Both the position numbers and the translations under genes were made by a program. From the NCBI GenBank assembly GCA_963763045.1, contig CAVXNL010000019.1:29788-93787 (forward strand): a stretch of DNA of 64,000 bases, given 5' to 3'. How positions within the stretch are numbered: the first letter of the stretch is position 1; every line of letters starts with the position of its first letter. The notes under the pieces are model-generated. The model had not been told where the DNA came from. It searched no databases and worked only from the letters and a program-made list of their open reading frames with translations. Shown piece after piece: positions 2,205 through 51,090 of the stretch. This DNA comes from an uncultured Planctomycetaceae bacterium. GTDB taxonomy: Bacteria > Planctomycetota > Planctomycetia > Gemmatales > Gemmataceae.

Positions 2205-5200
2205 CTACTTCGGCATGTGCCGCAGCCGAAAATCCTCCGCGATCAGGTCGATGATCCCCGTCCGCGGATCGACGCGCAGCGTGTGGAACGGCTCCGTCAT
2301 CTTCGGCACATCGTCGCGGCTGTAGAGCGTCTTCCCCGTGGTCTTGTCGATGACGCGAATGCGCTGCGTCACCTGCGGCATTCCGTTGGGCTGGTTCCTG
2401 GTTATCCTTGACGCACAGATTACGATCGGCAGGTCCGCAAAGCGATCGAACAGGATTGCCTGACCCGGCAGGTTCGCAAACCAGCGGCGCTTGCCGGTGG
2501 CGCGGTCGAAGGCATATACCCAGCCGTTAACGTCAACGGAGGTAAGCTCGACCTGGAACAACGCCGTCGTGGTTCCATCGGATTCGCGCGGTGCCTCCCG
2601 AACCAGCGCCAGGTAAGAGTTTGCCGAGTCGCCGAACAGGACCGTGGACTTGAGCTGCTCCAAATGCTTCGGCTCGACGTGCGTCTTTAGGAGCTCGCGA
2701 CGGGCGGCGAGGTCGAACACCGTCACATCGCCCTTCGGCGTCACCACGGCCACGAGATGAGGCTGCTCGGAATAACCGATGGTCGAGCCGGCCGGCATCC
2801 GCTGGTGCCAAACATCCTTCCCGGTCAGCACATCGTAAAGCCGCAAGTGCAGATCGTCGCCGCTGTCCTGCACCAGGATGCGGCCGTCGATTGTACGCAC
2901 CTTGCGGTGATAGGCTTCCAGGGCCCCGTCCGGAACGGGCACGCGACCCCGTCCGCCGTTCTCGCGCACGGATGCGCTTCAAAGTGCCATTGCGATTCCG
3001 TTCGACCTGGAACAGGTGGGTGCGATCACGGAAAGTGCCTGCGAACGTCGGCCAATCGGACCGTTGCCAGCGGACTGCGCCCGTGGCGGTATCGAGCGCC
3101 GACTAGGCCGCTCTTAGTTTCCACAAAGACGCCCTGGAGGTCCGGCGCATCGACCATGCCGACGGCAATTGGCTCGCCATCTGGTTGGAAAATCCCGGCG
3201 CCCACGGACGTGCCGTGTGCCAGGTTTGGGAGATTCAACTCGCCGGATATGCCGTCCGCCAAGTTGCGGAACCAGCATATGCGGCGCTCCACCACATCGA
3301 CGCCGAGAACTATCGGGCCGGCGCAAACGACCACGATATGTCCGATGTTCCACTGGGTACAAATGTACGGCAACGTGGGGGAACGGAGAACGGCGTCAAG
3401 CCCACTCGGAAGGCGCACCTCCAAAATTCGACTTCGGCCATGCGGTGCAGCACGCGCAGACGAGAAGCGGCACCGTCGAGTACAAAGCGGAGGTCGTTAC
3501 TGGAGGGCAGCAGGGTAGTCGTGCGGAGATAAGGCGTCTGCTCCCCCATGTACAAATCGGCGAATGGGCTAAATCCGTCGGGCAAGACGACGTTGCGCGC
3601 CGGGAAGCGGCCCTTCGATTCCGTAACTTCCAGGGATCGCCCCTGCCACGCCGGCACCACGGTTTCCAGGTACGGCAAGAAACGCTTGTCCGCGGCCAGC
3701 CTGGCGAGCGGTGCGCCGTTGCCGAACTCGCGCCAGTTTGCGGTAACACGCCGTCGCATCTTCGACCAGGCCGCGTTTCGTCAGCACCTGGGCGCGGGCC
3801 TCCAGCGCTCGCGCCGCCATCTCACGGTCGCCCTCCTGCTCCAGGGTTTGCAATTCGAGCAGTCCGGCCAGCACCAGACGCCGGTCCTCGCCGTCGGCCA
3901 GCCGCATCGCCAACTTCAGACGCACTTCGCGCCCGCGGCTCCCTCGGCTCCAGGCACCGCACCGAACAGCGCGGCGAAGCGCGTTCAGGGCGGCAACATC
4001 ATCAGCCGGCAGCGCCTTCGCCTCGCGCTCGATCTCGATGCGTAGTGCCGCTCGTTGTTCCGGCGTGGCACGGGCCAGCATCTCGGCGACGTGGCTGCGC
4101 ACCCACAGGTCGGGACGCACCTGCACGGCGGGGTCGTCCGGCAGGGCCAGCAAATCGCCGCCGAGCGTGGCGTCGTACAGGTCGCGGTAAGCGCGGACGG
4201 CATCGCTCAGGCGGCCCTGTTTCTCTCGACCGCGGGCCAGCACGGCGAAATAGCTAGCCTGGCGACGACGTTCTTCCGCCTTTGCACGCAGCCGATCCGC
4301 CAGTGCGGGGTTCGACGGCAGTGCGATCTTGCAAAGCGCGCGATACTCGTCGAGGTATTTCTCCCCCGCCGCGAAGTCGCTTTGCAGCAGCCGCGTCAGG
4401 GCGGTGTAGAGCAGGATCCGCGACCGCTCCGCCAACTCGGTTTCCTTTGCGCCGGCCAACACGGTCCGCAGATCGACGACGGCCATTGCTGCCTCGCCCT
4501 TTTCGAGCAGCAGTTGACCGCGTTCCAGCCGGGCCGACAGGTCGCCGGGCGTGCGTTTCAGAATCTCTTCGATGCGGCCAGCTTGGTGGCGAGCTGCGGA
4601 TAGGCCGTCACGCCGCCGTCGTCCTGCGACCACAGATCGCCGCCGTGGAATATCAGGTTGCCCTTCGCTTCGCCCTTCCGGCAATCGAGACGGGTCTGCC
4701 GCTCCGGCTTCTCAGGATCGAGGACCAAAACGCCGGTGTCGCGCAACGGCAGGTAGTAGCGGTTGCCGCAGAAGGTGCCGAGGCCGGCCGGTTCGGGGAT
4801 CGCCTGCTGCCACAGTTGCTCGCCCTTGTCGAGACTCAGCGCCCGGCACAACGTCCGGCCGACAATCAGCACCCGGCCGTTCTGCACGCCGCCGACGTAC
4901 AGGTCATCGTCGGTCCGGGCGCTCTTCCAGATCAGCAACCCGTCGCGCAGGTTGAGACAGCGGATCGAATCGGCGTCCGGGGCCGCGTAGACGATCCGGT
5001 CGCCGGTCAGGATCGGAGCGGTGTGCTTGAAGCCCTGCGTGAAGGTTTCCTGCGGGATCTGGCGGAGCACTATTTCCTCGCCAGGCGGCGGCGTGGGCTG
5101 CGCGCGATCGCGGTAGGCGTGCGCCAGAGCAGGCTGCGCGACAGCAGATCGAAGCCGATCAGCGCGCCGGCGTTGGTCGGACAGACGAGAACGCCGTCGC

Positions 5201-6807
5201 GGAAGGCCAGATGCACGGCGTGAATCCGGCGCGGCACGTCCAGCAGCAATTTGGTGCGCATGGTTGCCAGCGGCTGTGTCCACAGAAGCGTGCCCCGGTC
5301 GGCGTTGAGGCACAGGAGCCGTAAGTCCGATTGCTTATCGACCAGGACGTAGAGTGCGCCGCCCAGCGGCAGAGGCGGGCCGAGGAAATAGGCGTCGGCC
5401 AGCTCGGCGGGAACGCTGCCGGGTCGGCCGCCGATTTCCCAGACGACTTTCCCGGTGGCCAGGTCGAGAGCGCGAAGCCGATTGTGGTGAATGAGATTGC
5501 GCAGCGGACCGAAGTGGCGCGGCATCCCCGACTGCTGCTCCTCGATCATCTGCGGCGGCGGCGGCAGCGGCAGGTCCTCGACCGCGTAAACGTGTTTGCC
5601 GTCGCAGCTCAAGGTGCCGAGGGCGGAGTTCTGCATCAAGACGGCCTGGGCGCCGATGGCCCGGTATTTCCCCAGCCAGTCCTCGACCTGCACCTTCTGG
5701 CCGGGGTCGCGCAAGACCCCTTCGAGGCTAAGCCCAAGGTCGGCGCGCCAGACTTCACGGCCGGTGTTGGTGTCAAGGGCGCGAACGCCGCCGGGGCCGC
5801 GGAACACCAGGCGATTGCCGGCGGCGACAGGAACGTTGACCGGGAGCAGCGCGGCCTGCCCGATGGGCCGGCCGCGGCGGAGCCACTCCACGCTCTCCTT
5901 GTCGCCGGAGGCGACACCAGCTGCGCGAATCAAGCAACGGCACATCGCCTTCACCCCGGCCGGTCCGCGCCGCCGTGCCGCGAAAGAGCGGCCAATCGGC
6001 AGTGCGATCGCGCTCGGCGACCGGCAAGTCGATCCCACGCCGTAGCTGCTCAATGGGATATGTCTTCTCTCCCAGCTTCAACCCCGCCATGCCGACGCGC
6101 CGGCTGAGCGCATTCCACGTCTGTTCGGCGCACTCGGCGTCGCCGGCGGCCTGGAAGGCAAGGGCGGCCTTGAACAGGGTGAGCGGCGGTGGACGATCGG
6201 GGCTGTTTTGCTGAAGCAGCCGCTGGAAGCAGACGGCGGCAAGATCGAAACGGCCGCGGTCGAGATGCAGCGCGCCGAGCAGCGTCAGCCCTTCGCGGCC
6301 AGCGCTGGTGTATCCATAACGGCGGACCAGGTCATCCAGCGCGGCGAGGTCGTTGGCAGCGCGAGCGTCCCGCAATTGTTTGCGGGCCAGCTCGTTGTAC
6401 GTGGCCTCGTAATATTTTTTACCGTCGTCGGGCAATGTGGCGACCAGCCGTTCCGCCTCGGCACGCGTGCTGGTCCAACGCTCGGACGGTTTGCCGGTTC
6501 GCTCCTCTTGAGTCTGGCGAAAGAACGAATCTTCGCGGGCATCGAGAACGGACTGGAGCAGTTTGACGCTTTGGTCCCAGTCGGCGTCCCCGATGTAATC
6601 GCGGGCAGCGCTAAGCTTGTTGCGCAGAGTTGAATCGGTCGGGAGGATGAACAAGTCACCTGTCGTGAGCAGTGGCCGGGACGATTCCGATGCAGGCGGC
6701 GGAACATACACAACTCGCGGTTGAAGCGCACTGGCGTGGGCGGCGAACCCCAGCGCGGTTGCCAACGTGCAGGGGAGGATCCAGTTCCGGTGCCGATCCG
6801 ATGACAT
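2205..6807 (-). CDS. giant secreted protein (~1530 aa) with N-terminal TPR-like helical repeats and C-terminal PQQ-like beta-propeller repeats; multiple frameshifts
   Basis: Start is MSSDRHRNWILPCTLATALGFAAHASA (signal peptide), with ATG at 6805-6807 preceded by GGAGGAA. Five consecutive minus-strand ORFs overlap end to end (5773-6942, 5070-6053, 4558-5313, 3569-4684, 2205-2969). The C-terminal pieces carry beta-propeller-like motifs (WVYAFDRATGKRRW, VIDKTTGKTLYS). Confidence 0.65.
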
Positions 6808-7110: not shown

Positions 7111-8588
7111 ATGCCTCGCCGCGTTCTCGGCCTCTTCACGATCTTCTTGGTCATCGGCATCTTCCCCCTCACTTCATCGGCGCCCGCCGAAAAACCCGCC
7201 GCGCCGCTTCGAGTCGGTTTCGGCGAGGCCGAGTCATCGGCGCCCGCCGAAAAACCCGCCGCGCCGCTTCGAGTCGGTTTCGGCGAGGCCGAGATCACGC
7301 CAAAGGTCGGCGGCGACAAGCCGGTATACGTCGCTGGTTTCGGCTCGAATCGGAAGGCGACCGGCGTTCACGATCCGCTCATGGCCCGCGCCGTCGTCCT
7401 CCAGCACGGCTCGCAGAAGGTGGCCATCGTGGCGCTCGATCTCGTGGGCTTCTTCCTTCCCAACGTGGAGCGCGTCCGCAAGGCCCTGCCGGGTTTCAGC
7501 TATGTCATGGTCAACAGCACACACAACCATGAGGGGCCGGATACCCTCGGACTCTGGGGGCCGACACCGTTTCAGAGCGGCGTCGATCCCGTTTACGTCG
7601 CCTTCGTCGAGAAGCAAATCGTCGCCGCCATCAAGGCCGCGGAAACGGCGCTGAATCCGGCCAAAGCTCGGATCGGTTCCATCAAAGCTCCGGAACTGCT
7701 CCACGACGGCCGGGAGCCATACGTCAAGCACGATGACCTCGTGGTCCTGGAGTTCCGCGACGGCGACAAGACCACGGGCCTGGTCGTGCAATGGAACTGC
7801 CATCCCGAGACGCTCGACAGCAAGAACACGCTCCTCAGCGCCGATTACGTCGGCTACACCGTCAAGCATCTCAAGGAGAAATACCGCTGTCCCGTCGTCT
7901 ACCTGACCGGCACCGTCGGCGGACTGATGACCTCGCTGAAAGTCGAGATCAAGGACGCCTCGGGCAAACCGCTGGCGGACGGCACCTACGAGAAAACGGA
8001 GCGCTACGGCGTGCTGCTCGGCGAAGCGGCGGAAAAGGCGATCAAAGCAGCGAAACCGATCGAGCTGACGCCGCTGGAAGTGCGGACACGATCGCTGTTC
8101 CTGCCGATCGAGAATAAACTCTATCTCGCGGCCCGGCAGTTCGGCGTCTTCGACCGTCCGGGTTACCTCTGGACCGGCAACCCCGACAAGGCTGAACCGG
8201 AGAAGAACCCCGATCCCGAGAAGCGACTGTGCCTGCGCACCGAAATCGCGCTGCTCCGTCTCGGCGAGTTGGACGTGGCGGCGATTCCCGGCGAGATCTA
8301 TCCCGAGCTGGTGCTGAGCAAGGTGCAGGATCCGGTGGACCCCGGCGCCGACTTTCCCGACGCCCCGATCGAGCCGGGCATCTACGCCCAGCTGCGCGGC
8401 CCACATCGCATGATGATCGGCCTGGCGAACGACGAGATCGGCTACATCATCCCGAAGCGCCAATGGGACGAGAAGCCGCCGTTCTGTTACGGACGGAAGA
8501 AGCGCAATATGGCGAGGTGAACAGTCTCGGATCGGATACGGCGCCGCTGATCTGTGAGGCGTTCAAGAAACTTGCGGCAGTGAAATAG
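7111..8588 (+). CDS. neutral/alkaline ceramidase-like hydrolase (secreted), C-terminal frameshift near nt 8490; contains a perfect 60-bp tandem duplication
   Basis: Signal peptide MPRRVLGLFTIFLVIGIFPLTSSA. The body is ceramidase-N-domain-like (GFGSNRKATGVHDPLMARAVVL, NSTHNHEGPD, DDLVVLEFRDGD). The last 35 aa continue in the frame of ORF 8229-8588 (...EEAQYGEVNSLGSDTAPLICEAFKKLAAVK*). Confidence 0.65.
7174..7293 (+). repeat. perfect 60-bp x2 tandem direct repeat inside the ceramidase-like CDS, encoding SSAPAEKPAAPLRVGFGEAE twice
   Basis: Two identical copies of tcatcggcgcccgccgaaaaacccgccgcgccgcttcgagtcggtttcggcgaggccgag lie back to back. Confidence 0.9.
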
Positions 8589-8663
8589 ACAGGGAGACAG
8601 GGAGACAACGAGACTCGTCTGTCTCCCTGTCTCCCTGTCTCCCTGTCCCCTGTCTTATTTTTG
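8589..8663. terminator. bidirectional intrinsic-terminator-like hairpin between convergent genes
   Basis: GACAGGGAGACAGGGAGACAACGAG / CTCGTCTGTCTCCCTGTCTCCCTGTC form a perfect ~25-bp stem followed by TTATTTTTG. It sits just after the ceramidase stop and before the 3' end of the minus-strand gene. Confidence 0.6.
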
Positions 8664-9014
8664 CCCCGGATCGACAATCCGCACCTTCGAAACCGGGCCG
8701 GTCGGAACCGGCTGGGCCAGCGGCGGCGTGTAGGGCCGGGGGATTGGCGCGATCGGCGGCTCGCCGCCGATGCCGTAGGGCGGCAGGGTCGTCGCTCCCG
8801 GCGGCTCCAGGAGCGGGCCTTCGCAAGCCGGTCCGGGGCCTCCTTCGATGACCCGGCCGGAACTGACAGTCGAACATTCGCACGGACAACGAGTGCCGAT
8901 GCCGAGCCGGCTCATCAGCTGCCCGTTGCCAATGCCCATGCCGCAGCCGTTGCAGCCCTGGAGCAAACCCAGACTGGCCGCAACGGCAACGGACGCCAAG
9001 CGGTGACGAAGCAT
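8655..9014 (-). CDS. small secreted Cys/Pro-rich protein (hypothetical)
   Basis: N-terminal signal peptide MLRHRLASVAVAASLGLLQGC, a CPCEC motif and a Pro-rich tail. No known domain. Confidence 0.4.
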   Translation of the reverse strand: MLRHRLASVAVAASLGLLQGCNGCGMGIGNGQLMSRLGIGTRCPCECSTVSSGRVIEGGPGPACEGPLLEPPGATTLPPYGIGGEPPIAPIPRPYTPPLAQPVPTGPVSKVRIVDPGQK

Positions 9015-9309
9015 GTGCGGTTCCTCTAGCTATTCGGTCCCGGACGGATGTGTACGAGACGGGTACCGGCGCCTTGAATCAATTCTGCATAGAGCCGCCG
9101 GGACGAAGCCACCGCCGGCCGCAAAACCGGAGTGGCCCGCCATGTTATCATTCCCCAGGACTGCTGCGGGGGCAAACCGCGACGTGCAATAAAAAAGACC
9201 CACGGGCTTGAGCCAATGGGTCTGGATTGAGTCTCTGTCGTCCCCGGCAGGCCGGGCGCCGGCGGGATAATCGGCAGCGTCGCTTCGCCGCTTGCGGCTA
9301 GGTCTTCTT

Positions 9310-9428
9310 CTCCCCTCTCCCCTGTACTCAGGGGAGAGGGGTCGGGGGTGAGGGGTGCGCAGAACGCTGCGCAGGTGCCCCACCCCTCACCCCCGACCCC
9401 TCTCCCCTGAGTACAGGGGAGAGGGGAG
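9310..9428. repeat. G-rich perfect palindromic repeat element (REP/MITE-like), family copy A
   Basis: The arm CTCCCCTCTCCCCTGTACTCAGGGGAGAGGGGTCGGGGGTGAGGGGTG and its reverse complement flank a palindromic core (tgcgcagaacgctgcgca). The same arm sequence recurs at 18136-18258. Confidence 0.8.
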
Positions 9429-9465
9429 ATTCTGTGTTGCTAGGCCGCATGCGGCGAACGGCGGG

Positions 9466-11107
9466 CTACTTCTTCGCCGTCTTGATCTGCTCGCGCAGGT
9501 AGTCCAGGGCCGCGTCGAGCTGCTTGTCCTTGAATTCCTTGGCCGTCTCCTTCGGCGGCTTGCCGTGGCGGATGATCTCGGCTTCGTGCTGGGCCTCGTC
9601 CAGGTCGTCGCGTTCCTTCGGCGTGAGCTTCACGACCTTGTCGGGCGTGACGCCCCATTCGTCCTCGTCCTTGCCGGTGGTGCTGGACTTGTTCAGGTTC
9701 TTGCCGCTCGGCCGCCAGAACGACGCCGTCGTCAGCTTGATCTCACCGGCGACGCCGGACGCCACTCTGAAGCGTCGAATGTTCTGCACGCTGCCCTTGC
9801 CGTAGCTGCGCTCGCCGACGATGAAGGCCCGCTTGTGGTCCTGCAGGGCCGCCGAGACGATCTCGCTGCCGCTGGCGCTCATGCCGTTGACCATGCAGAC
9901 CATCGGGAAGTCGAGCAGGCTGCCTTCGCGGAAGCCGCTGAATGTCGTCTCCCGGCCGACGCGCGGCCGGATCGACACGATCAGGCCGTCGTCGATGAAC
10001 AGGTCGGAAATCTTCACGGCGGAGTCGAGCAGGCCGCCCGGGTTGAAGCGCAGGTCGAGGACGAAGCCCTTGATGCCCTGCTTGGTCAGCTCCTCCATGA
10101 CGCCTTCATGTCGCGGGCAGCTGTTGCGCTGGAACGACGTCAGGCGGATGTAGCCGATCTTGTTCTTCTGGTCGATCATGTAGTCCCACTCGTCGTCCGC
10201 CTTGCGCTTGAAGCCGAGGACCGACTCGATCTCGATGCGAGCGCGGGTGATCTCGACCGTGATCGGCTTGCCGTCGCGCTCGACGGTCAGCTTCACCTTG
10301 GTGCCGGCCTTGCCCAGGATCTTCTTGACCGCGTCGATGAGGGCAAGCCCTTGGTGTCGATGACCTCGGGCGGATTGAGCGGATTGCCGTTGCTGTCCAC
10401 CTCGCGGATGATCGTGGTGATGATGTCGCCGGCTTCGAGGCCCGCCTTGTAGGCGGGGCTGCCCTTGATCGGCGTCACGACCAGCAGCTGGTCGCTGACG
10501 TTGTCCTTGCGGATCTGGATGCCGATGCCGGTGAAGAAGCCCTGCGTCTCCTGCTTGAAGCGTTCGAGCTGTTCCGGGATCGATGTAGGTCGTGTACGGA
10601 TCGAGGTTGCGCAGCATCGTGCTGCAGCGTGAAGTCGATGTCCTTGTGCTTGTCGAGGTCCTCGCGCTTGCCGAGCAGCTGGCGGACCTCCGCCAGCAGC
10701 ACCGTCAACTTCTCGTCGTCCAGGTCCTTGGCGTTTTTCAGCTTGGCTTCGATCTCCGTCGGCACCGGCTCGTCGATGCGGCGATACAGGCCGCTTGACG
10801 GCCCAGACGACCATCTCCGGCCGGTCACCTTCTTGATGTGCTTTTCCTTGATGAGCTCGACGACCTCCATGATCTTGTTGGCATACTTGGTCGGCCTCGA
10901 TCGCACTCAGCTTGGTCTCGTCGAGGATGGCATCGCGGTGCGTCTTTCAGGCCGTCGAGCGTGATCTTGCCGTCCACGAAGGCCTGGTATTCCTTGCGCA
11001 GCTCGCGGCGGCTCTCCAGTTTGGGCATACGATCGAGAAGAGTTCGGCCTTCCTCGGCGAGGGCGGCCGGGACCTTCCCGTCGATGGCCCATTTTGGCCA
11101 GGGTGCT
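9466..11107 (-). CDS. C-terminal processing (tail-specific) peptidase, S41 family with PDZ domain; several frameshifts; no own start codon or signal peptide, possibly fused to the upstream caspase-like ORF
   Basis: Pieces across overlapping minus-strand frames are Ctp-like: YANKIMEVVELIKEKHIKKVTG, FFTGIGIQIRKDNVSDQLLVVTPIKGSPAYKAGLEAGDIITTI (PDZ), GFVLDLRFNPGGLLDSAVKISDLF, and MVCMVNGMSASGSEIVSAALQDHKRAFIVGERSYGKGSVQ (catalytic Ser/Lys region). Confidence 0.85.
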
Positions 11108-12023
11108 CAGCCGCTCCAGCCGCTTCGGGCGGCGGCGGGATTGGTCGTCAGGACGTAATGGCTGCCGCGGCCGAGGACGAAGTGCTGCTGCTGTCTTCTC
11201 CTCGGTCGTCTTGCCGTACTTGCGGGCCAGCTCGCGGCAGGTTCTTGTCGAGGTAGGTGGTCAGCTCGTCGACCGTGACGACGCCGTCCGGCTCCGTAGC
11301 CTTCCTTGTCGGCCGCGCCCTTCAGGCCGTCGAGGAGCACCTGGGTGAACAGGCCGTGCTTCTCGAGGTCGAGGGAGGTGTACAGGCCGTTGGTGGCGAG
11401 GAACAGCGACGCGGCCGGGGATGGAGAGGTGGTCGTCGCTGCCGTCGTCGCCGAGGAATTCCTTGTACGGAGCATCGCCCAGGCTCGGCTCGGTGATGGC
11501 CGCCTTGCCGGTGAAGCCCTTGAAGTCCACGTCCAGAAACGCGCAGAAGTGCTGGCCTTGAGGTTCTTCAGGATGTCGCCGATCTCGGCGGCGGCGACGG
11601 CGTCCTTCTCCCGGCCCTCGAAGGTGGAATCGGCGGCGAGGTAGCAGCGGCGGTCGCCGGCATCGCCGAGCGGAGCCGCCGTTGCCGATGAAGGCGAAGA
11701 GGACCAGGTCCTGACTGTTGGCTTTCGCAACAACGCCATTCAGCGTCTTGAGGATGTTCTCGCGGGTGGCGTCGGCTCCGACGAGCAGATCGGCGTTGGT
11801 CTTCTCGACACTGAGATATTGCTTGTCGGTGAGGACCTCGAACAAGGCCCGGGCGTCTTCCTCCGCGAGGGGCCGTTGTTTGATCTGATCGTCCTTGTAC
11901 TTGCCGATGCCGACGACCACCACGTAGGTCTTCGGTGCGGCTTTTTCCTCCGCGCGCGCGGGAGAAGAACGACCAGGGCGGCCACAGGACGCCCAGGTAT
12001 CGCAAACTCTTCGCCATGGCCAT
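11107..12023 (-). CDS. secreted caspase-like (peptidase C14) domain protein with degenerate catalytic dyad; frameshifted
   Basis: Signal peptide MAKSLRYLGVLWPPWSFF, then KTYVVVVGIGKYKDDQIKQRPLAEEDARALFEVLTDKQYLSVEKTNADLLVGADATRENILKTLNGVVAKANSQDLVLFAFIGNGGS. This matches the C14 fold, but Asn replaces the catalytic His of the SGHG motif and the Cys motif region reads FCAFLDVDFKGF, with no D-A-C-x-S-G motif. Confidence 0.55.
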
Positions 12024-12297: not shown

Positions 12298-13587
12298 TCA
12301 GCCGCGGACGGACGCCGGTTTGAGCACGAACAGGACGGCCGGTCCTTCCGGGTTCGTCTTGAATTCCGTCGGACGATCGTGTCCGGCCGGCGCCAGACAG
12401 ATGGTGAGCGTGCCCTTGTCCAGATGATAGATTCCGGAGGAGCGCTTCGCTCCCTCGACGAGCACGTCGATCGTCTTCGGTGCCTGAGAGGGACCGAGTT
12501 TGAAGGTCGCGGTGGTCGGGGTGCCGTCGTCAGCGGTTGAAGCGAACCGCGTGCGCAGCGTGTCGGCTTTGAACGTCACGACCTGATCGCACAGTTCGGG
12601 AATCAGGGGAACGGCGCGGCCGTCCGTCTCCAGAGACACCACGTCCCAGGTTCCCTGAAGACGCTCCTCGTCGGTCGGCGGAACGCGGTTCGTCCGCAGT
12701 TCTGCCGACGGAGCGGCTAGATTCTCTGGTGCGGGAGCGCGCGTGGTGAGGACCCCGGTCCCGAGAACGACCGCGACGATCAGCGAAGCGAGCGCCGCCA
12801 CCTTGTTCAGCAGCAGCGATTTGAGAGCCGCGTCCATCAGAGCCGCCACGGAAGCCGGAACAACTCCCGCACCGGCCGCCAGCAGGACCGCGGTCTTGGT
12901 CGTGGCCGCGGCTAACCCGGCCGGCACCGCCGCGGCAGCGGCGTGTGCGGTCAGGGCCGCGCCCAGAGCCACCGACGAAAGCGTGACGCCGCGCCGGCCG
13001 AGTCGCTTCGCCAGCATCCGCCGTCCCCGGTTCAGCCGGCTCGACAAGGTTCCCTCGGGCACGCCGAGCTGCCGGGCCACGTCCTTGCGCGACCGACCTT
13101 CCACGTCGCACAGAACCACGGGCGTGCGGTACACGTCCGGCAGCTTGTTCAGTTCCTGGTCGAGGAGGGGTTGCAGATCCAGCCAGACGTCCTGCTCGGC
13201 CACCATGGGTTGGGGCATGTCTTCCACCTGCTTCTCGATCGCCCGTCGTCGCAAGCGCACGGCACGGGCCTTGAGGGCGGTCCGGTAAGCGACGCCGTAC
13301 AAGAAGTTGCCGACCATGTCGCGCGGTCGAATGTCGTCAGCCTTGCGGGCCAGGACGAAGAATGTGGCCTGAAAGGCGTCGTCCGCGTCGTGGTGATCGC
13401 CGACGACGCGCCGGCAGACGCCTTGTACCATCGGCCCGTGACGGCGCACCAGGGCGGCGAACGCAGCCTCATCCCGGCGGGTGATGAAACCCTCCAGGAG
13501 CTGCCCGTCCGTCGCCGTGTCCGGGTCAAGGGACAGGGCGAGCCGGTGCAAATGATCGACAACCTTGCTCATCGGGCCGGACGCCAT
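12298..13587 (-). CDS. ECF-type RNA polymerase sigma-70 factor fused to a TM segment and a C-terminal TIGR03067 (Planctomycetes-specific) domain
   Basis: Region 2/4 motifs (FVLARKADDIRP, VVLCDVEGRSRKDVARQLGVPEGTLSSRLNRGRRML), an Ala-rich TM, then QGTWDVVSLETDGRAVP...GIYHLDKGTLTICLAPAG typical of TIGR03067. Intact 429-aa ORF. Confidence 0.8.
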   Translation of the reverse strand: MASGPMSKVVDHLHRLALSLDPDTATDGQLLEGFITRRDEAAFAALVRRHGPMVQGVCRRVVGDHHDADDAFQATFFVLARKADDIRPRDMVGNFLYGVAYRTALKARAVRLRRRAIEKQVEDMPQPMVAEQDVWLDLQPLLDQELNKLPDVYRTPVVLCDVEGRSRKDVARQLGVPEGTLSSRLNRGRRMLAKRLGRRGVTLSSVALGAALTAHAAAAAVPAGLAAATTKTAVLLAAGAGVVPASVAALMDAALKSLLLNKVAALASLIVAVVLGTGVLTTRAPAPENLAAPSAELRTNRVPPTDEERLQGTWDVVSLETDGRAVPLIPELCDQVVTFKADTLRTRFASTADDGTPTTATFKLGPSQAPKTIDVLVEGAKRSSGIYHLDKGTLTICLAPAGHDRPTEFKTNPEGPAVLFVLKPASVRG

Positions 13588-16790: not shown

Positions 16791-18123
16791 ATGGACCCCT
16801 CCACCTCTCTCGAAAGTCGTCTCCTCGGCCAAACCATCGCCGGCCGTTATCGCCTCAACGCCGTGCAGGCCAGCGGGGCGTTCGGCACCGTCTTCCATGC
16901 GCATCAATACTTTTGCAGCCGGTTCATGCGGCCGGTCGCGGTCAAGGTCTCGCGGCAGAGCGGGCTGACCGAGGAAAACGCGCCGGGGCTGTTCGGCGAT
17001 GCCATCGTCCTGGCGCGTCTGCTCGCCGAGGGGGATCACGACCACGAAGGCCGGGCGCATCTCGTGCAAATCTTCGACATGGGACTGCTGCCCGAGCACG
17101 ACGATCGCGCCTACCTGGCGATGGAGTACGTCGATGGCTCGCCGCTCCTGTCGCACATGCGCGCGGCGGGACGGTTCAGCGTTGCCACGGGATTGCGCTT
17201 CGTCAAACAGATCTGCCGGGCGCTGTCGCTGGTCCACGCCCAGGGGGCCGTCCACCGCGATCTCAAGGCCGACAACATCCTCGTGGACCGCCGCGGCGTG
17301 GTGCGCGTCGTCGATTTCGGCTTGGCCGCGTTCGCCGACGAGCGCATCGGCTTTGTGCCGGGAGCGATGGGCACGTTCACCTACATGGCTCCGGAAACGG
17401 TTTACGGTCGATCGACGCCCGCCTCCGACGTCTACAGTCTCGGCCTCCTCCTGTACGAGTTGTTCACCGGCGGCGGCCCGCATCTGAGCGCTCCGTGGCG
17501 GAATGACGAGAAGGACGACCGCTGCGACGAGAACTATCGCATCAAGAAGTCGTTCCGCTTCGATCCCCCCTCGCAAGCGCAGAACGAGATTCGGAACGAC
17601 TACCGCTGGCTGGACGCGCTGATCCTGCGCTGTCTGGAAACGGAACCGGAGCGGCGTTTCGCGGATGCGCGGACTGCTGACGGCCATCGAAAGCTGCGAA
17701 AACGGCGAACAACTGCCTGCTCTTCCTCCGCCGGTTGACGACGACTCACCCGCGCTCTCAACGCCGCGCACCGAAGACGCGGAGCGCGACCTGCTGCTCC
17801 GAGAAACGCGGCGATTACTGGCGGCGAAGGCCTACGATCGGGTGATCGACCAACTCGACGTGCATCGACCGCCGGAATGGGCCACGCTGGACACCTTCGG
17901 CGCCCGGACTCTGCGAGCGCTGGGACAGGCCTATCTCGGGCGCGGCGACCTGACCGTGGCACGCGATTGCCTGGAGCAGCTGCGAAGCGGCCAGAAGCAG
18001 CAGGCACTGCTCCCGAAGGCAGACTATGCGCTGGCGTTATCGGACCTGTTCAAGTGCTACCGCGCCCTGGGTCAAACGGAACTCGCCAAGATGTGTCAGA
18101 ATGAGGCACGCGGGTTGTTGTGA
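16791..18123 (+). CDS. Hanks-type Ser/Thr protein kinase with C-terminal helical (TPR-like) extension; frameshift near nt 17660
   Basis: MDPST...GAFGTVFHA...VAVKV...HRDLKADNILVD...VVDFGLA...TFTYMAPE...DVYSLGLLLYELFTG. The tail (ORF 17665-18123) continues after a shift at ...ERRFAD with GQAYLGRGDLTVARDCLEQL. Confidence 0.8.
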
Positions 18124-18135
18124 TCAGGACTCTTT

Positions 18136-18258
18136 CCCCCCTCTCCTCTGTATTCAGGGGAGAGGGGTCGGGGGTGAGGGGTGAGCGACTTCACCGTGTT
18201 CTGGCTCTCACCCCTCACCCCCGACCCCTCTCCCCTGAATACAGGGGAGAGGGGGGAG
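18136..18258. repeat. G-rich palindromic repeat element, family copy B
   Basis: Same arms as copy A (…CAGGGGAGAGGGGTCGGGGGTGAGGGGTGAG) in inverted orientation around a 19-nt centre. Confidence 0.8.
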
Positions 18259-18466: not shown

Positions 18467-18518
18467 TACCCTCTCCCCCTCAGGGGGAGAGGGTAGGGTG
18501 AGGGGGGAATCCGAGGCG
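18467..18518. repeat. shorter G-rich perfect palindrome (related element C)
   Basis: CCCCCTCACCCTACCCTCTCCCCCTCA / TGAGGGGGAGAGGGTAGGGTGAGGGGGG. Confidence 0.7.
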
Positions 18519-21309
18519 GAGCGCCTGTTCGCGCTCGGCTGGCTGCATTGGCTCGACGGTGCTTTCGTCGAGGCCGAGTCTGCACTGGTCATGGCAGTCG
18601 AAATCTATCGGCAGGCGAACGCAACCCCGCAGCTCGCCGAAGCCGCGTACTGGTTGGCACGGGTGCGGATTCGCCTCGACCGGCAGGATGCGGTCAACGG
18701 CTTCGAGACACTTCTGCGCCAACTGGGCGGCTCTCCCCAGGCGACCGTGTGGTTTGTCGATCTGCTCTGGCGCACCGGCTGGGTGGGTCGAGCCGAACAA
18801 GTGTGGAAGGCGGTGCGCGGCAACAAGCGTGTCGCCGTCTGTCCCGATGGGCCGTTGCTGGAGGCGCGCTTGCTCTTGCAGCGCGGCGAGGTCGGCGGCG
18901 CCGTCAAAGTGCTCGTCGAAGTCCAGCCGGCGAACGGCGTACACTGGGTCGAGCGCCAGTTGTTGCTGGCGTGGGCCGAAGCCGCACAGGGCAGACGCGA
19001 CAAAGCGCTCGAATTGATGCGTCGTATCGAGGAGTTGCCGTATCCACGAGCCGCACTGGCGACCTGGCGCGCAGCGCTGGAAGGCGCGTTGCCGTCGCTC
19101 GCCGACGAATCCGAACCGCTCGTGCTGCGCGACCTGAAGCGCGGCTACCGAGAACTCACGGAAGGACGCACGATGGAGGCGGTCGAGGCGTTCCGCGCGG
19201 CACAGGGGCAGCAGTCGGCTCTGCCGTTCGCGCGCTTTGCTCTCGCGCGCCTGGGATACGATAGCTTCGCCGCTCTCCTGGCCGTTCAATCGGGGCTGTT
19301 CATCGCGGTGCGCTGCCGTGTCTGGCTCGCCCTGGAGCGATTCCGGCTGCGCCAGGGCAACCCGGCCGAATGGCTGGAAACGCTGCAACACGAGAGTCGC
19401 CTTGGCTTCATCGCCGGTCCGATCGTCGAACACTATCGCCGGCTCGCGCAGCTCCTGCGCCAACCGGCGGACAGCGAAGCGTTGTGCGACCTCGTTGAGC
19501 AACAGGAGCAGTTCGAGCCAAGCGTGTACCGCAACGTCGTTCGTGCGGCGCTGGAGGTTGTCCGCCGTCTGCCGAGTGAAGAGGCCAGAGAACTGATCGC
19601 GGCGTGGGGGAGATTGGAGTGGCTCACCGCGGAGGAAGAACTGCGTTGTTCCCTCCAGCGGCAGTCACTGCAGCTGACCCTTCGGGAGACGAACGCGGCC
19701 GACCTTTTGTCCGACGAACCGCTGCTGCAACCGGCGTCGCAGTTATGGCAAGCCGCGACGGAATTAAAGGACGACGACTCCTGGCGCGAGCAGGTTCGCG
19801 CTCTGCGATCCTCGCCCCGGTTGAGGCCGCTCACCCAGGCGCTGTTATTGCAGGAGGCTGCCCAACGCGGCGACGTGACGGGAGTCGTCGCGCTGCTGGA
19901 CGAGACGGACGTCTGGCGCGGTTTTCGGCCGGCGCCGCCGGTTTTTGTGCTGCGCACGGTTCAGAGCGTGGTGCATGGTCAGCCCTCAAACGCGGGCTTG
20001 CGCCGCTCTATCGCGCGCTGGTTGCAGATCTGGGACCTTGACGCTCTGGGCCAGCCTGGCTCCTCATTGGCCGCGCTCGTCGGGCTGCTGACCGTGCCTG
20101 CCAGCCGCGCGGAAGCACCTCCTGGGATACCCATTGTCCCGTGGCTCTTCCATCAGGCGGCGCGCACACTCGGCCACGAAGACTATATCGAGGCGCTCGC
20201 CTGCGTTCGCCGAGCGGAGGAGGTCGATCCGGAATGGGCGTCGGCGGCGAGCGCCGATCTCATGCGCACGGTGTTACCCGATCTGGAGAGGCGCGCAGTC
20301 GCGCAGTCCCTCGCCGCCGCGCTTCGGGAAACAGAATCGGAAGCGGTGGAATCCGGCCGATTGCTCACGGACGTCGTGGACCTGCTTCGCCAGCATCCCG
20401 ACGGCGCTGCCATCCTCAACGCAGCGGTGCGCGGCGACCGTGATGCCGTCCGCGAGGGTCTCGCTCTGCTTCTGAATCAAGCCGATTTGCCGCCGCGTCT
20501 CGCCCATCATCTGGCGCTGATCGAAATGCGGTCCGCTCTGGCGCTGGAGGACAGGGACAACACCGCAGCCGCTGAAGCGCACTGGCGGCGTGCGTGGACC
20601 GCGTGGCTTCGCTTGCTCGCAACGCCGCCGGGAGGAGAGGGTCTGCCTGTTCCCGACGCCGCCCGGATGGTTCTCGATACGCTGCTCGCCGATCATCGCC
20701 GGCGGATCAGCGGTCTGCTGGCCCGCAACGCCGTCGATGCGGCACGGCGGTACTGGGCGCTGGTTCAGGAGTTGCCCGCGCTGGCGGCGCTCCAATCGGC
20801 ACCACTGGGTCAAGACCTGGTGGTGCGAGTCGAACGATTCCGCGATGAGCTGGCGTCGGAATACCTGGTCATGACGCGCGAGTCGATGCGCTATGGCGAC
20901 GTGCCCGAAGGTTGCGCGCGCGGATTACGAAAAGGGTCTGTCGCACCTGCGGCGTCTTCTGAGCCTGGACCGCGACAACGTGCGGCTGCTGACAGCCCTG
21001 GTCGAGGTGTGCGGCGACTGGTTCCTCGACCTCTACAACGCGGAAGATCGCGATCGACTGACGGAACAGGTGACGCGGTTCGTTCCCTTCGCGCAGCAGC
21101 TGGTTCGTCTGACGGAGGGTCGGTCCGGCGAGTTGGCTGCGCGGGCAGCGCTGTCGGAATACTTCAAGTTCCGCGGGTTCGTCGCGCCGGATCACGCCGG
21201 GAAGGCGGCACTGTACCGCGAGGCGCTGCGGTTCAACCCGGCCAATGAGAATGTGCGTGAACTGCTGCAAGGACTCGGGGAAGGATCGGCCGCCGATGAA
21301 CCGGAGTGA
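18498..21309 (+). CDS. large alpha-helical repeat (TPR-like) hypothetical protein (~930 aa); frameshift near nt 20890; GTG start or a shifted earlier start
   Basis: Continuous 916-aa Leu/Ala/Arg-rich ORF of helical repeats with a signal of real coding. After a shift at ...ESMRYG the C-terminus continues in ORF 20893-21309 (ATCPKVARADYEKGLSHLRRLLSLDRDNVRLL...). It lies immediately downstream of the STPK. Confidence 0.5.
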
Positions 21310-24495: not shown

Positions 24496-26585
24496 TCATT
24501 CTTCCCGGGCAAGAACACACGACGCTACGGCGACTTCCTGCCGGCGCGTGGACGGGGCGATGACGCTCTCGACCTGGTCGGACGCCCCGAGCACCACGGC
24601 TCCGACGATCGACGGGTGCTGTGCTTCCAGCTGTTGCCGGGCAGCCTGGACCGCGGGAAGAAGGCTCACTCCTGCCTGAACCGCGATCAGAATCACGTCG
24701 GCGTCGGGGGAGAGCAGCAACGCTTCGCGCCCGGTGCCCATAGCGGCAGCGTCCACGATCACACAGTCGAATTGTTCCTTCAGCGGTTCCAGGACGTTGC
24801 GTGCTTCACCGCGCGACAGGGCCTGGTTAGCCGCGGCGTCAAACCGTCCGGCAGGCATCACCCAGAGTCGATTGAAATCCGTCGCCCGGAGGACGTCGAA
24901 CGTTTCCGCATCGCCGCGCAGGACCTCGGCCAGTCCGGGTCCAGCCGCGATGCCGAAGGTGTCGCCGCAGTCCACCGCTAGCCCGATCGGCGTCGATCAG
25001 GACCGTTTTGTGCCAGGATCGGGCCAGGCCCGCGGCGAGATGGGCCGCGAGTGCGGACTTGCCGCCGCCATCGCCCGGACCAGTCACCACGATCACACAC
25101 GCTCTGTCCGGCACCGACTCCAGGATCGCTTTGCAGACAGTGTCCACGGCTTCGCCAGTCCGCCCCGGTGCCGCGAGAATCTTCGCCGTCGCCTTCAAGT
25201 TCGGCAGGGCGCCCAGCACCGGCATCCCCAGTCCGTGGGCGACGTCGTGGACCGAGGTGACGCGCTGCCGGCGCGACTCCGCGAACCCCACAAAAAGCAA
25301 GCCGATCAGGACGCCCCCAAGACCGCTCAGTCCCGCGGCGAGTTGTCGGTTCCGGACGCTGTCCGCGTCCACCGCCACTTGCTCTGCCACCCTGGTGACC
25401 CAGTAGGGTGCCGCTTTCTCCGCTTCGATCTGGCGGATTTCGGCCTCTAGTTTCCGCCAGCTCGGGCTGTCCAACGGCACTTCGACTCGAACAACGGGCG
25501 GCGGCGGAGCGACGACTGTCGCAGGCCGCGGCACGGAGCGACCGGATTTCTTTTTCGAGCTTCTCTTGCTGGCCCGTCAAACTCACCACCCGCTCCTGGA
25601 TTGTCTTGATCTGCGGTTGCAGATTGGGAGTAGTCGAATTATCACGGGTCAACTGCGCGAGTGTCTTCCGAATCGCGGTCCGCCGCTCCTCCAGTTCCTT
25701 GTTGATCGCGGCGCGCCGGTCGAGGTAGCCGCGCAGGGCCGGTTCCTTTTCTCCGAGGACGGCAATGCGGATCGTTCTCTGGATGACTTCCTCGATCGGT
25801 TTCAGCTCTGTCTTCATCTGCTGCACGAAGGCGTCGTTCAGGAACGTCTCGTTGACCAGATCCTCGGAAACGACCGGGACCGTGCGTTTCTGTTCGGCCG
25901 TCCTGAGAGCAGCCAGCTCGTCCACCGCATTCTGGTAATCGCTTCGGACCTGGACCAGTTCCCTCTCGGCGACACCCAGGCGCGGATCGTCGCCGCGCGG
26001 CGCGGGAACGGGGACCGGCTCTTCTTTCACGATCGCGGACGAATCGTGAGCCAGCGTTTCTTGCAGATCGTGCAAATACCGTTCGCGGCGGTTTTGCAGC
26101 TCTCTCAAGTAGGCATTGGCGGTCGAGTGAGCGATGACGACGGCCCCGGCAGACGTCTTGTCCGAGGCCCGGATCCGCACCGCACTGTCCTTCGGGTGTA
26201 CATCGACCTGCACGGCCGCGGCGATCCTGTCCGACGGAGAACTCCAGCCACGCTCAGCGACGAGGTCGGCGAGTTCAGGCTCCTCGACGGCGAACTGGAA
26301 AACGATCGGGTTGTTGATTATTTCGACCTGGGCACGAAGTTCGGCAGCTGCGTCGATATCCTTCTCGACGATACCCGCTGGAGCGCGTTGAACCCGAAGC
26401 CGCAGATCGGCGTTGTATCGGAAGGAACTGAATGTCCAAACCGCATAGCCCGCGGCCATCCCGAACAAAGCGGCGACGGTCAGGGAACGGAACCAGCAGT
26501 GCGCTGCGGCACGGAGCAACGCTCCGAAAGACGGATGCGTAGTTGGCACGGATGGTGGAACACGGCTGGGATCGAAGGGAGGCAT
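24496..26585 (-). CDS. polysaccharide co-polymerase / BY-kinase (Wzc/GumC-like chain-length determinant with C-terminal P-loop ATPase); frameshifted
   Basis: N-terminal TM (LTVAALFGMAAGYAVW), a long coiled-coil periplasmic region, a second TM (LGGVLIGLLFVGFAESRR), a Walker-A-like segment (VIVVTGPGDGGGKSALAAHLAAGLA) and DAAAM / LIAVQAG motifs typical of CpsD/Wzc ATPases. Confidence 0.7.
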
Positions 26586-33200: not shown

Positions 33201-33607
33201 ACATTCGCCTCGCCACCGCTGAGCATGATGGCCGGCTGCGTCTCGTCCGCGCTCAGCGCGATGCCCTGCTCGCGCGCCTGAACGCACGCACGGGCCCATC
33301 GGCGGTAGGTGTGGCGATGCTTGGCGGCAGCGTCTTCTTCCGCGCCGGCCAGGAGGAGGTCGCCGGCATGACGGGGCGAGCCAATTTCCGCCTCTATTGG
33401 GAGGCCGTGGTGGACACGCTGAAGGACCGCCAAAAGATCCTGCTCGACGCCGACAAAATGCCGGAGCTGAGCAGTTTATGGCTGATGCGGCTGCTGCCGT
33501 TCGATTCGCTGCGCATGCCGTTCTCGACACGGCCGCCGGTGCTTCCGCCGGAAGCTGCCGTGAGACGAAAAGGGAGGCTCATTCCATGCGTAAGCTCTTC
33601 TGGCTGA
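30257..33607 (+). CDS. P1B-type heavy-metal-translocating ATPase (CPC motif, no N-terminal HMA domain) fused in frame to an HflK-like SPFH/band-7 domain; frameshifts near 30530, 30670 and 33195
   Basis: TM N-terminus (ORF 30257-30541), the actuator TGESLPVDK, CPCALILATP, DKTGTLTEG, MVGDGINDAPALARADVGLAL and the final TM ...LAVLLNAMRLL. The same uninterrupted 853-aa ORF then runs, with no stop, into a TM (VTTVLLGLAFACYTLSGL) and an SPFH domain (VNADEVALVRRFGKP...HWCWPWPIDAV...GVHLDGVSLHDLHPPQDVVASYHSV). The HflK C-terminus (RLYWEAVVDTLKDRQKILLDADKMPELSSLWLMRLLPFD) ends at 33607. Confidence 0.7.
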
Positions 33608-34552
33608 CCCTGCTCCTCGTCGGCGGAACGCTGCTGGCGTCGTCGTGCCTGTACTCGGTAGATCGCATCGACTTCGTCTATCTGACGCAGTTCGGCCGGC
33701 ACGTCGCCACGTTCGATGGGACGCGCGACGCCGATGCCGGGCTGCACGTCAAGTGGCCGTGGCCCATTCAGTCGGTGCAGCGCCTCGACCGGCGGCTGCA
33801 ATACTTCGACCTGCCCGGCGCCGAGTTGATGACCCGCGACCGCGATCGCAACACCATCGACAAGACGCTGACCATCGACGCCTACGTCTGCTGGCGCATC
33901 GCCGACGGCGAGGGCGTGGATCAGTTCGTCCGCACCGTCGGCACGGCAGAGAGTGCGCGGGCCATCCTTACGCAGCGGCTCGGCAGCGAGCTCGGCGCGC
34001 TGATCGGCGCCCGCGAGATGAATGACCTGGTCAGCACCGACCGGCTCGGCGGGAAGGTAGATGCGCGAGCGCGAACAAGCTCCGCGAGGAGCTGCTGAGC
34101 CGCGTGAAGCAGGTCCGGGAAGAGGCTGGTATTGAGGTGGTGGACGTGCGGCTGCGGCGCATCAATCATCCCGATTCGGTGCGCAAGGAGATCTTCGAGC
34201 GCATCCGCAGCGAGCGCGCGAAGATGGCCGCCGAGTACGAAAGCGACGGCAGGCGACAGGCCGCGGACATCCTGAGCAAGAGCGAGCAGCGCGATCGGAG
34301 AACCTCCGGACGCGGGCCAAGGCAGAGGCCGTGCGGCTGCGCGGCGACGCCGATGCGCGAGCCGACCGGATCCGCGGCGAAGCGCAGAAGCAGGATCCCG
34401 ACTTCTACGCCTTCCTCAAGAAGCTCGAGGCCTACAAGAGCATCTTCGGCGACAACAAGACCTTGTTGCTGCTCTCCACGCATCGAGAGATGTTCGACCT
34501 GTTCAACAATCCGCCGGGAATGAAGCCGGCGCCAAAACCGGGAGAGAAGTGA
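33586..34552 (+). CDS. hflC: HflC-like SPFH-domain membrane protease modulator; frameshifts near 34060 and 34320
   Basis: MRKLFWLTLLLVGGTLLASS (TM), HVKWPWPIQSVQRLDRRLQYFD, TIDAYVCWRI, then after shifts EIFERIRSERAKMAAEYESDG and RLRGDADARADRIRGEAQKQDPDFYAFLKKLEAYKSIFGDNKTLLLLS. The start overlaps the hflK-like stop. Confidence 0.75.
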
Positions 34553-50545: not shown

Positions 50546-50718
50546 GCATCGTCCGCCGCTTGCGGCTTAGCGAGGAGCCGCCTTTAAGCAGTGGTTTCAA
50601 AATCTTGTACCGCCGACATTCCTGTCGGCACGGGCCGGCAAGAATGCCGACGGTACGAGGTTTTTTCACCGCGTCTAGGCCGCAAGCGGCGGACAGGATC
50701 TCAGCGAGTGACTATCTC

Positions 50719-51090
50719 ATGATCGTACAAGAACTTCGCCACATCCAGGAACGCTGCGGCTGGCTGCCCAAGGAAGAGATGCGGGCACTGTCGGAACGGC
50801 TGAAAGTGCCGCTGCACCGCTTGCACGAAGTGGCCAGCTTCTATCCGCTCTATCGTCTTGAACCGCCGCCGACCGTCGAGGTGCACGTTTGCCGCGACAT
50901 GGCCTGCCACATCAACGGCGCCGCGCAGCTGACGAGAACCTCGAAGCCTACGGCAAGGAGCTCGGAGGCGAAGAAGGTCAAGGTCTGCGGCGTCTCCTGC
51001 CTCGGCCAGTGCGACAAGCCCGTCGCTGTCATCGTCAACGAGCATCACGTCTACCGCGGCCTCTCCGAAGACGGAGATCAAGCGTACTGA
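50719..51090 (+). CDS. NuoE/HoxE-like thioredoxin-fold [2Fe-2S] subunit; frameshifted
   Basis: MIVQELRHIQERCGWLPKEEMRALSERLKVPLHRLHEVASFYPLY...VHVCRDMACHINGA, then after a shift ...VKVCGVSCLGQCDKPVAVIVNEHHV. Confidence 0.7.
   Translation: MIVQELRHIQERCGWLPKEEMRALSERLKVPLHRLHEVASFYPLYRLEPPPTVEVHVCRDMACHINGAAQLTRTSKPTARSSEAKKVKVCGVSCLGQCDKPVAVIVNEHHVYRGLSEDGDQAY

Follow-up and report, generated by a model that had tools for sequence, protein, structure and literature searches.

The stretch analysed here, referred to throughout as the window, is 64,000 nt of contig CAVXNL010000019.1 (positions 29,788 to 93,787 of the forward strand) from an uncultured Planctomycetaceae bacterium that GTDB places in Gemmataceae, order Gemmatales. 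Its minus strand carries, between 12023 and 9466, a gene in which the original prediction, made from the letters, had seen a caspase-like (C14) open reading frame (ORF) with a degenerate catalytic dyad, directly upstream of and possibly fused to a carboxy-terminal processing protease (CTP, or Ctp) of family S41. The locus most probably holds one gene for an exported CTP with a dead N-terminal caspase domain, broken up in this assembly by insertions and deletions (indels) that the organism itself would not carry. The features of the gene, from its 5′ to its 3′ end, are as follows.

9466-12023, minus strand: whole gene (signal peptide, pseudo-caspase, helical linker, PDZ, S41), delimited by three-frame translation, frameshift-aware alignment and homologues
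11948-12023, minus strand: signal peptide, MAMAKSLRYLGVLVAALVVLLPARA followed by EE, read from the sequence; two frameshifts (about 11984 and 11965)
11143-11929, minus strand: caspase-like (C14-fold) domain with the catalytic dyad gone; six frameshifts (about 11677, 11553, 11407, 11296, 11234 and 11192)
11855-11857, minus strand: Asp aligned with the first metacaspase S1-pocket Asp (C-x-N-D motif)
11681-11683, minus strand: Asn codon AAC at the catalytic-His position (F-I-G-N-G)
11531-11533, minus strand: Asp aligned with the second S1-pocket Asp (the D of D-x-Cys)
11525-11527, minus strand: Asp codon GAC at the catalytic-Cys position (D-V-D-F-K-G)
10612-11139, minus strand: helical linker of about eight helices; seven frameshifts (about 11124, 11089, 10941, 10892, 10820, 10793 and 10620)
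10243-10590, minus strand: PDZ domain, from Pfam; two frameshifts (about 10578 and 10342)
9631-10242, minus strand: Peptidase_S41 catalytic core (PF03572), zero frameshifts; Ser codon 9873-9871, Lys codon 9798-9796
9478-9621, minus strand: C-terminal helical tail (model helices 804-851)

The gene begins at an ATG at 12023, about 14 nt downstream of a Shine-Dalgarno-like AAGGA, and ends with a stop codon at 9468-9466. The signal peptide that the original prediction had assigned to the caspase-like ORF is indeed visible at this start: the N-terminus runs from MAMAKSLRYLGVL to PARA followed by EE, and we infer cleavage at an A-x-A site. Three-frame translation of 12200-9400 shows protein-like sequence jumping between frames from the ATG to about 10340 and then keeping one clean frame to the stop, while the ORF listing alone yields seven or more overlapping fragments. 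The fragments were stitched by eye into an 866-aa query for Pfam and protein searches, and the two closest homologues (P0001 and P0002) were then aligned to the minus strand by frameshift-aware dynamic programming. This alignment requires 17 frameshifts of one base each, 11 by insertion and 6 by deletion, all of them in the 1.65 kb between 11986 and 10342; from 10342 to 9466 there is none. With the 17 indels removed the gene has about 855 codons, and the stitched frame contains no internal stop. A predicted model of full-length P0001 (predicted local distance difference test, pLDDT, 85.1) is laid out as a low-confidence signal helix at residues 2-24, a caspase-like domain at 33-301, a linker of about eight helices at 303-477, a PDZ domain at about 485-600, an S41 core at about 601-800 and terminal helices at 804-851. 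The linker of the window gene also holds a weak CtpB_N-like stretch (PF22694, E 0.002).

Homologues settle how these parts belong together. Searched against 5.8 billion proteins, the stitched query gave 658 matches with E no higher than 1e-5; homologue counts in this report refer to the 120 that were listed. All 120 are 854-890 aa long and cover 96-100% of the query at 58-79% identity, and roughly half of them carry precomputed PF00656 and PF03572 annotations, the co-occurrence of C14 and Peptidase_S41 for which the original prediction had proposed a search. In the species-representative genomes of Gemmatales the gene is a single intact ORF at 44 of 46 full-length loci. In P0001, which at 79% is the closest relative, one 856-aa ORF lies between the same flanking genes as in the window, namely an extracytoplasmic function (ECF) sigma factor upstream and a small gene of 126 aa downstream. 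On these comparisons the caspase-like domain and the Ctp are one polypeptide, and the suspected fusion holds. The alternative frame that the original prediction had quoted as reading straight through the caspase-frame stop at 11107 is exactly what the homologues show, and it spans two frameshifts (about 11124 and 11089). The "C14-like ORF" of that prediction survives as a caspase-like domain; it does not survive as a single ORF, since the frame is broken repeatedly. An intact dyad together with a separate Ctp bearing its own signal peptide, the outcome that the prediction had named as its refutation, was not found.

The full-length architecture has a narrow distribution. In a scan of one genome per species, full-length matches were confined to Gemmatales, under the record titles Gemmataceae, Gemmata, Fimbriiglobus, Limnoglobus, Zavarzinella, Urbifossiella, Frigoriglobus and unclassified "Planctomycetota" metagenome-assembled genomes (MAGs). 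Isosphaeraceae, Pirellulaceae, Kuenenia and Thermoguttaceae gave matches to the C-terminal Ctp half alone. Some Gemmataceae loci likewise match this half alone, and ordinary short CTP paralogues therefore occur alongside the fusion. A gene of the Gemmatales type was also seen in MAGs titled "uncultured Alcaligenaceae bacterium", nearly full length at three loci (L005, L039 and L052) and as the C-terminal half only at a fourth (L078); the taxonomy of these four records is probably wrong.

The C-terminal half is a PDZ and S41 protease of the CTP kind. On the stitched window protein PF03572 scores 145.8 bits against a cut-off of 24 (E 1.2e-42), and the PDZ models PF13180 (PDZ_2) and PF17820 (PDZ_6) score 31.6 and 28.9 bits against cut-offs of 27; three homologues (P0001, P0002 and P0021) reach 277-284 bits with TIGR00225, for which the cut-off is 218.6. 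The clean C-terminal 292 aa align with Pseudomonas aeruginosa CtpA (7rpq, E 2.5e-34), photosystem II D1 protease, Prc and CtpB, the best relatives of solved structure. Chain 7rqh, which we take to be an active-site mutant of CtpA, differs from 7rpq solely by a Ser to Ala change at the third residue of "SAS", and the catalytic Ser was assigned because the two chains differ just there. The Ser-Lys dyad is intact in the window ("MSASGSE" and "YGKGSVQ"), and the S41 site behind the PDZ domain is predicted to be competent.

The caspase fold of the N-terminal domain is seen in structure prediction. An AlphaFold model of P0002 residues 28-298, built with 28 aligned sequences, has a pLDDT of 89.6 and a predicted template modelling score (pTM) of 0.91, and the top 50 Foldseek matches in the PDB are all caspase-fold proteins (probability 1.00, E about 1e-9, template modelling score about 0.6), including MALT1 paracaspase, Arabidopsis metacaspases 4 and 9, yeast and Candida metacaspase-1, GSU0716, caspase-11 and CED-3. 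A profile of the domain finds metacaspase-1 chains in the PDB at E 1.2e-5, pairing "afiGeGgplge" with "hYSGHGGQTKD" and "aeddA" with "CINDA". Moreover, homologues match NF047832 ("caspase, EACC1-associated type") at E 1e-13 to 1e-16, scoring 49-60 bits against a cut-off of 140. A profile search of the domain against 1.84 billion representatives returned 147 clusters at E 1e-30 or better, most of them either fusions about 860 aa long or shorter sequences; the matches ranking below these have other architectures and a true dyad ("SGHGAP" and "LD(S/T/A)CYS"). The nearest relatives outside the family (P0232, P0259, P0261 and P0270) keep both His and Cys and match NF047832 more strongly. When the family was compared by hhalign with one of these true-dyad relatives, P0261 (probability 99.8%, E 6e-28), G-e-G was paired with g-h-g ("ysghgap") and D-V-d-F-K-G with d-s-c-y-s-a ("fldsCysa"). 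A short profile over the Cys region had zero matches in the PDB, and the Cys equivalence is accordingly taken from hhalign with the true-dyad relatives.

Both dyad positions are substituted throughout the family. At the catalytic-His column the 120 homologues have Glu in 94, Gln in 15, Asn in 10 and Asp in one, never His; the window has Asn, in the "FAFIGNGGS" of the original prediction (AAC at 11683-11681). At the catalytic-Cys column they have Asp in 85 and Asn in 35, never Cys; the window has Asp, and in place of the D-x-C-H-S-G block, which had correctly been reported missing, it has D-V-D-F-K-G (11533-11516). Divergent Ctp-fused members vary more widely (E/Q/R/T/A/S at the His position, D/N/S/V at the Cys position), again never with His or Cys. 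Since His and Cys are missing throughout the family, the dyad was lost before the family diversified and independently of the frameshifts. Alignment to metacaspases, recommended earlier as a check on the dyad, thus returns substitutions at both catalytic positions, and the alternatives formerly posed, a pseudo-caspase or a frameshift artefact, prove not to be alternatives: each is right in its own part and the two apply independently, the pseudo-caspase being no product of frameshifts when 120 of 120 intact homologues share it. The alignments show a domain that would be unable to use cysteine-protease chemistry.

What the domain has apparently kept is an acidic pocket. The metacaspase S1-pocket residues are Asp95 and Asp211 of TbMCA2 (PMC6426788), and two aspartates of the family align as their likely equivalents. 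Both are invariant across the 120 homologues; among the divergent fused members that could be aligned, the first (D57 equivalent) is kept in 15 of 15 and the second (D165 equivalent) in 15 of 16. The window has Asp at both positions. These pocket residues appear to remain under selection.

Two further observations concern sequences related to this domain. P0220 and P0235 each carry two tandem caspase domains, one with an intact His-Cys dyad and, after it, a degenerate one (H..P in one protein, Y..S in the other); pairing of an active with a dead caspase domain therefore recurs among relatives of the N-domain. Within the caspase-like domain itself, an acidic conserved loop, GAADKEGYEPDGVVTVDEL, at about 11330-11270 (minus strand) resembles an EF-hand calcium loop. 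The same loop in the true-dyad relative P0232 is ADKDGDGVVTTMEL, near the canonical D-x-D-x-DG, and the fusion family has a three-residue insertion in it. Ca2+ binding by this putative site is possible.

The 17 frameshifts call for an explanation of their own. Each of the six deletions is compatible with the loss of a base from a G or C run, and 4 of the 11 insertions lengthen a run, the other seven adding a lone base (G or C in six cases, A in one). The broken part of the gene is 79.6% identical to P0001 and 80.1% to P0002; the clean part is 85.4% and 74.1% identical, respectively. Between themselves P0001 and P0002 are 78.2% identical in the region of the broken part and 75.3% in that of the clean part, and more distant homologue pairs are always less alike in the N-terminal part. 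Of residues invariant across the 120 homologues, the broken part of the window gene retains 55 out of 59 and the clean part all 69; three of the four missing fall on frameshift codons and the fourth is an alignment-gap artefact. A bacterial pseudogene that had collected 17 indels by neutral decay would be expected to show many substitutions and stop codons too. Here there are no stops and no excess substitutions, and the damage is therefore very probably not evolutionary decay.

Other genes of the window are frameshifted as well, a further reason to regard the indels as artefacts. A GC3 (third-codon-position GC content) frame plot was dropped as too noisy, and a codon-usage Viterbi model over the six frames of the whole window was used instead. 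The model recovers the cluster in the gene (10345-11958) together with a second dense cluster at 51085-52437 and many same-strand switches. This second patch packs about 10 frameshifts into 1.35 kb of a NuoE/NuoF-like gene at 50710-52437 (plus strand) that has 2Fe-2S thioredoxin-like, Complex1_51K, SLBB and NADH_4Fe-4S domains; profile positions 4-25, 28-82 and 98-149 of PF01512 lie in different frames, as do positions 3-39 and 43-84 of PF10589. Furthermore, Pfam matches show a Band_7 gene at 33562-34548 (plus strand) split at about 34065, with profile positions 21-114 and 116-171 in different frames, and a BamB/PQQ_2-like gene at 2206-6672 (minus strand) split at about 5127. Outside the two dense patches there is seemingly one indel per 0.5-2 kb, roughly. 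Broken copies of the fusion gene itself were found at only 2 of the 46 loci (L025 and L077), both in "MFD" MAGs with "contig_N" names, presumably long-read assemblies; these copies fit assembly-related frameshifts in the same gene elsewhere. The 17 indels are best explained as assembly errors in a patchy, unpolished consensus of the long-read type. The appearance of a caspase ORF followed by a Ctp without a start codon is then a problem of sequence quality, and one that misleads any ORF-based reading of the contig.

Taken together, these results very probably describe one Gemmatales-specific exported CTP gene with a dead N-terminal caspase domain and a product of about 855 aa, the 17 indels in it being assembly errors. 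Several points weigh against this interpretation. Several flanking genes are intact, namely the ECF sigma factor gene (12298-13587), a 119-aa ORF (8655-9014) and the ORF at 7111-8520; error density must therefore be very uneven, which needs a cause such as a local gap in coverage or polishing. Seven of the 11 insertions lie outside homopolymer runs, and the verdict of artefact was reached indirectly, by comparing sequences. A Pfam scan of the stitched window protein gives no match to PF00656, the C14 family itself, with E at or below 0.01. The full-length model has a pTM of just 0.64 and is silent on contacts between domains, and neither a conserved operon partner nor a candidate substrate that would speak for a role of the N-domain was found at the loci examined.

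Set beside described proteins, the fusion combines familiar parts. With CTPs (MEROPS S41A: CtpA/CtpB/CtpC, Prc/Tsp and D1 protease) it shares the PDZ-then-S41 core, the Ser-Lys dyad, flanking helices and export by a signal peptide; unlike them it has about 300 extra N-terminal residues with a caspase fold and a linker of about 175 residues, in place of which the CTPs described so far work with separate adaptor lipoproteins (LbcA, NlpI) or with none. The closest sequence family of the N-domain, over the whole 211-position profile, is that of the EACC1-associated caspases (NF047832), from which it differs in scoring below the cut-off, in having lost the dyad, and in its N-terminal place in an exported protease fusion. 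Its caspase-hemoglobinase fold is also that of metacaspases and of the MALT1 paracaspase (C14B), and the His region aligns with yeast and Candida metacaspase-1, but identity is only 12-15%, the dyad is gone and there is no sign of Ca2+-dependent autoprocessing.

Another parallel is provided by pseudo-orthocaspases (Klemencic et al., 2019, PMC6426788). As in that class, the family has a p20-type domain, both dyad residues are replaced and the acidic S1-pocket aspartates are kept. The substitutions differ (E/Q/N with D/N in the fusion family, Tyr-Ser or Tyr-Asn in pseudo-orthocaspases), as do the hosts (Gemmatales as opposed to Cyanobacteria or Alphaproteobacteria), and the fusion partner here, unlike theirs, is a C-terminal PDZ-S41 protease. 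The same paper reports a p20 domain, degenerate to Gln-Cys, in fusion with a trypsin-like serine protease that is active; Planctomycetes, PDZ and S41 are absent from it (PMC6426788). A 2012 survey of prokaryotic caspase homologues found the dyad kept in only 64% of Planctomycetes metacaspases and leaves PDZ and S41 unmentioned (PMC3501461), and in part of a survey of microbial PDZ proteins, Ctp architectures are given with no C14 partner named. No description of a C14 and S41 fusion was found in the literature searched. The expectation of a novel protease architecture is thus upheld as far as that literature goes and fails for the databases, where hundreds of copies stand under names such as "C-terminal peptidase prc" or "S41 family peptidase [Planctomycetia]". 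Plentiful as it is in databases, where it goes by a generic S41 name, the architecture appears undescribed and uncharacterised in the literature.

What a dead caspase domain might do for a protease can be proposed tentatively. CTP proteases normally require a separate adaptor, or a substrate-induced movement of the PDZ domain, for activation. The signal peptide would export the fusion protein and the S41 domain would perform cleavage. The caspase domain would retain a peptide-binding groove and an acidic pocket suited to Arg or Lys and would serve as a built-in module for recruiting substrate or activating the protease. In this way it would take over, in cis, the part that LbcA and NlpI play as separate adaptors for CtpA and Prc; it could drive oligomerisation as well. 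A role in substrate recognition is an inference for which the conserved residues aligned with the S1 pocket are the one line of support. In its specific form, an EACC1-related dead caspase that binds Arg/Lys segments of periplasmic substrates in cis and feeds or activates a PDZ-gated S41 chamber, we regard the proposal as plausible with somewhat less than even prospects. Pseudo-p20 domains fused to an active trypsin-like protease in Alphaproteobacteria offer a precedent for a built-in module in general (PMC6426788). If true, a pseudo-protease of one clan would serve as substrate receptor for an active protease of another, and the lineage-wide fusion to a dead caspase with an intact-looking S1 pocket would amount to a natural experiment in building an adaptor into the protease. 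The family would also be a clear bacterial example of a pseudo-protease kept for a non-catalytic role.

A serious alternative to such an adaptor is a dead domain that works mainly in oligomerisation or auto-inhibition, gating the S41 chamber, and does not recognise substrate. Caspase-fold domains commonly dimerise, as C14 enzymes do, and the dyad positions vary freely in divergent members, the old active-site centre being therefore loosely constrained. In addition, CTPs rely on oligomers and on N- or C-terminal helical dimerisation regions, according to parts of two reports (PMC8764530, PMC12749690). The S1-pocket-aligned aspartates, which none of the 120 homologues lacks and which divergent members keep too, are more easily explained by a ligand in the pocket. 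We consider a mainly oligomerising or gating function less likely than not.

It is improbable that the gene is a genuine decayed pseudogene whose frameshifts are present in the DNA of the organism. The crowding of the frameshifts into 1.65 kb while the immediate flanking genes are intact would suit decay, as would the fact that most insertions are not homopolymer expansions. A stop-free stitched frame with no excess amino-acid divergence and nearly all invariant residues would not; nor would like damage to housekeeping-type genes elsewhere in the window, or the intactness of the gene in 44 of 46 other genomes.

Still less credible, to the point of being nearly dismissed, is a pair of genes, the first for a secreted pseudo-caspase on its own and the second for an independent Ctp. 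The given sequence does have a stop at 11107 in the caspase frame, and metagenome representatives of about 300 aa match the N-domain alone. The stop is created by frameshifts, however, the Ctp part lacks both a start codon and a signal peptide that would be its own, close homologues are all single ORFs, and the representatives of about 300 aa may be gene fragments off short contigs. Finally, an active caspase whose His-Cys dyad is masked by sequencing errors has practically no chance of being correct: a frameshift (about 11677) does follow the Asn of the His position, one codon further downstream, but both this Asn codon and the D-V-D-F-K-G block share a frame with the conserved residues around them, and His and Cys are missing from all 120 intact homologues and from every divergent fused member.

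Additional same-strand frame switches in the window, across which the protein sequence carries on and no gene boundary falls, were seen by eye only, in the following genes.

16819-18093, plus strand: Ser/Thr kinase-like gene; switch at about 17664
18511-21306, plus strand: large TPR-like ORF; switch at about 20907
24529-26316, minus strand: Wzc-like-looking gene; switches at about 24978 and 25515
46177-47553, minus strand: multihaem-cytochrome-like gene; switches at 47005-47553
49108-50526, plus strand: multihaem-cytochrome-like gene; switch at about 49755

The ECF sigma factor gene (12298-13587, minus strand) lies directly upstream of the fusion gene on the same strand and encodes an intact protein of 429 aa with Sigma70_r2 and r4_2 domains; beyond these the protein has a long extension towards the C-terminus, where hydrophobic segments and another C-terminal domain are found. 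Its synteny with the fusion gene is seen in the closest relative only (L001/L002), with partial matches upstream on the same strand at one locus (L017) and on the opposite strand at another (L044). A conserved link between the two was rejected, and a functional one is unsupported, there being no match at about 50 other full-length loci. Neighbours that do recur are an aminotransferase gene upstream (16 of 55 loci) and the convergent gene found at 7111-8520 in the window (11 of 55 loci); none of the neighbours amounted to a conserved operon partner among the 55 loci. The 469-aa ORF at 7111-8520 (plus strand) has an exact 20-residue tandem duplication near its N-terminus, where SSAPAEKPAAPLRVGFGEAE occurs twice, which could be real or an assembly artefact.

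Between the fusion gene and its downstream neighbours lies one further feature.

9309-9429, no strand assigned: perfect 49-nt inverted repeat with arms at 9309-9357 and 9381-9429, about 40 nt past the stop codon

Each arm contains a 13-nt hairpin (CCCCTCTCCCCTG/CAGGGGAGAGGGG). A related pair of inverted-repeat copies lies at 18140-18252, none being expected by chance, and the element is probably a palindromic intergenic sequence resembling repetitive extragenic palindromic (REP) elements, or a terminator.

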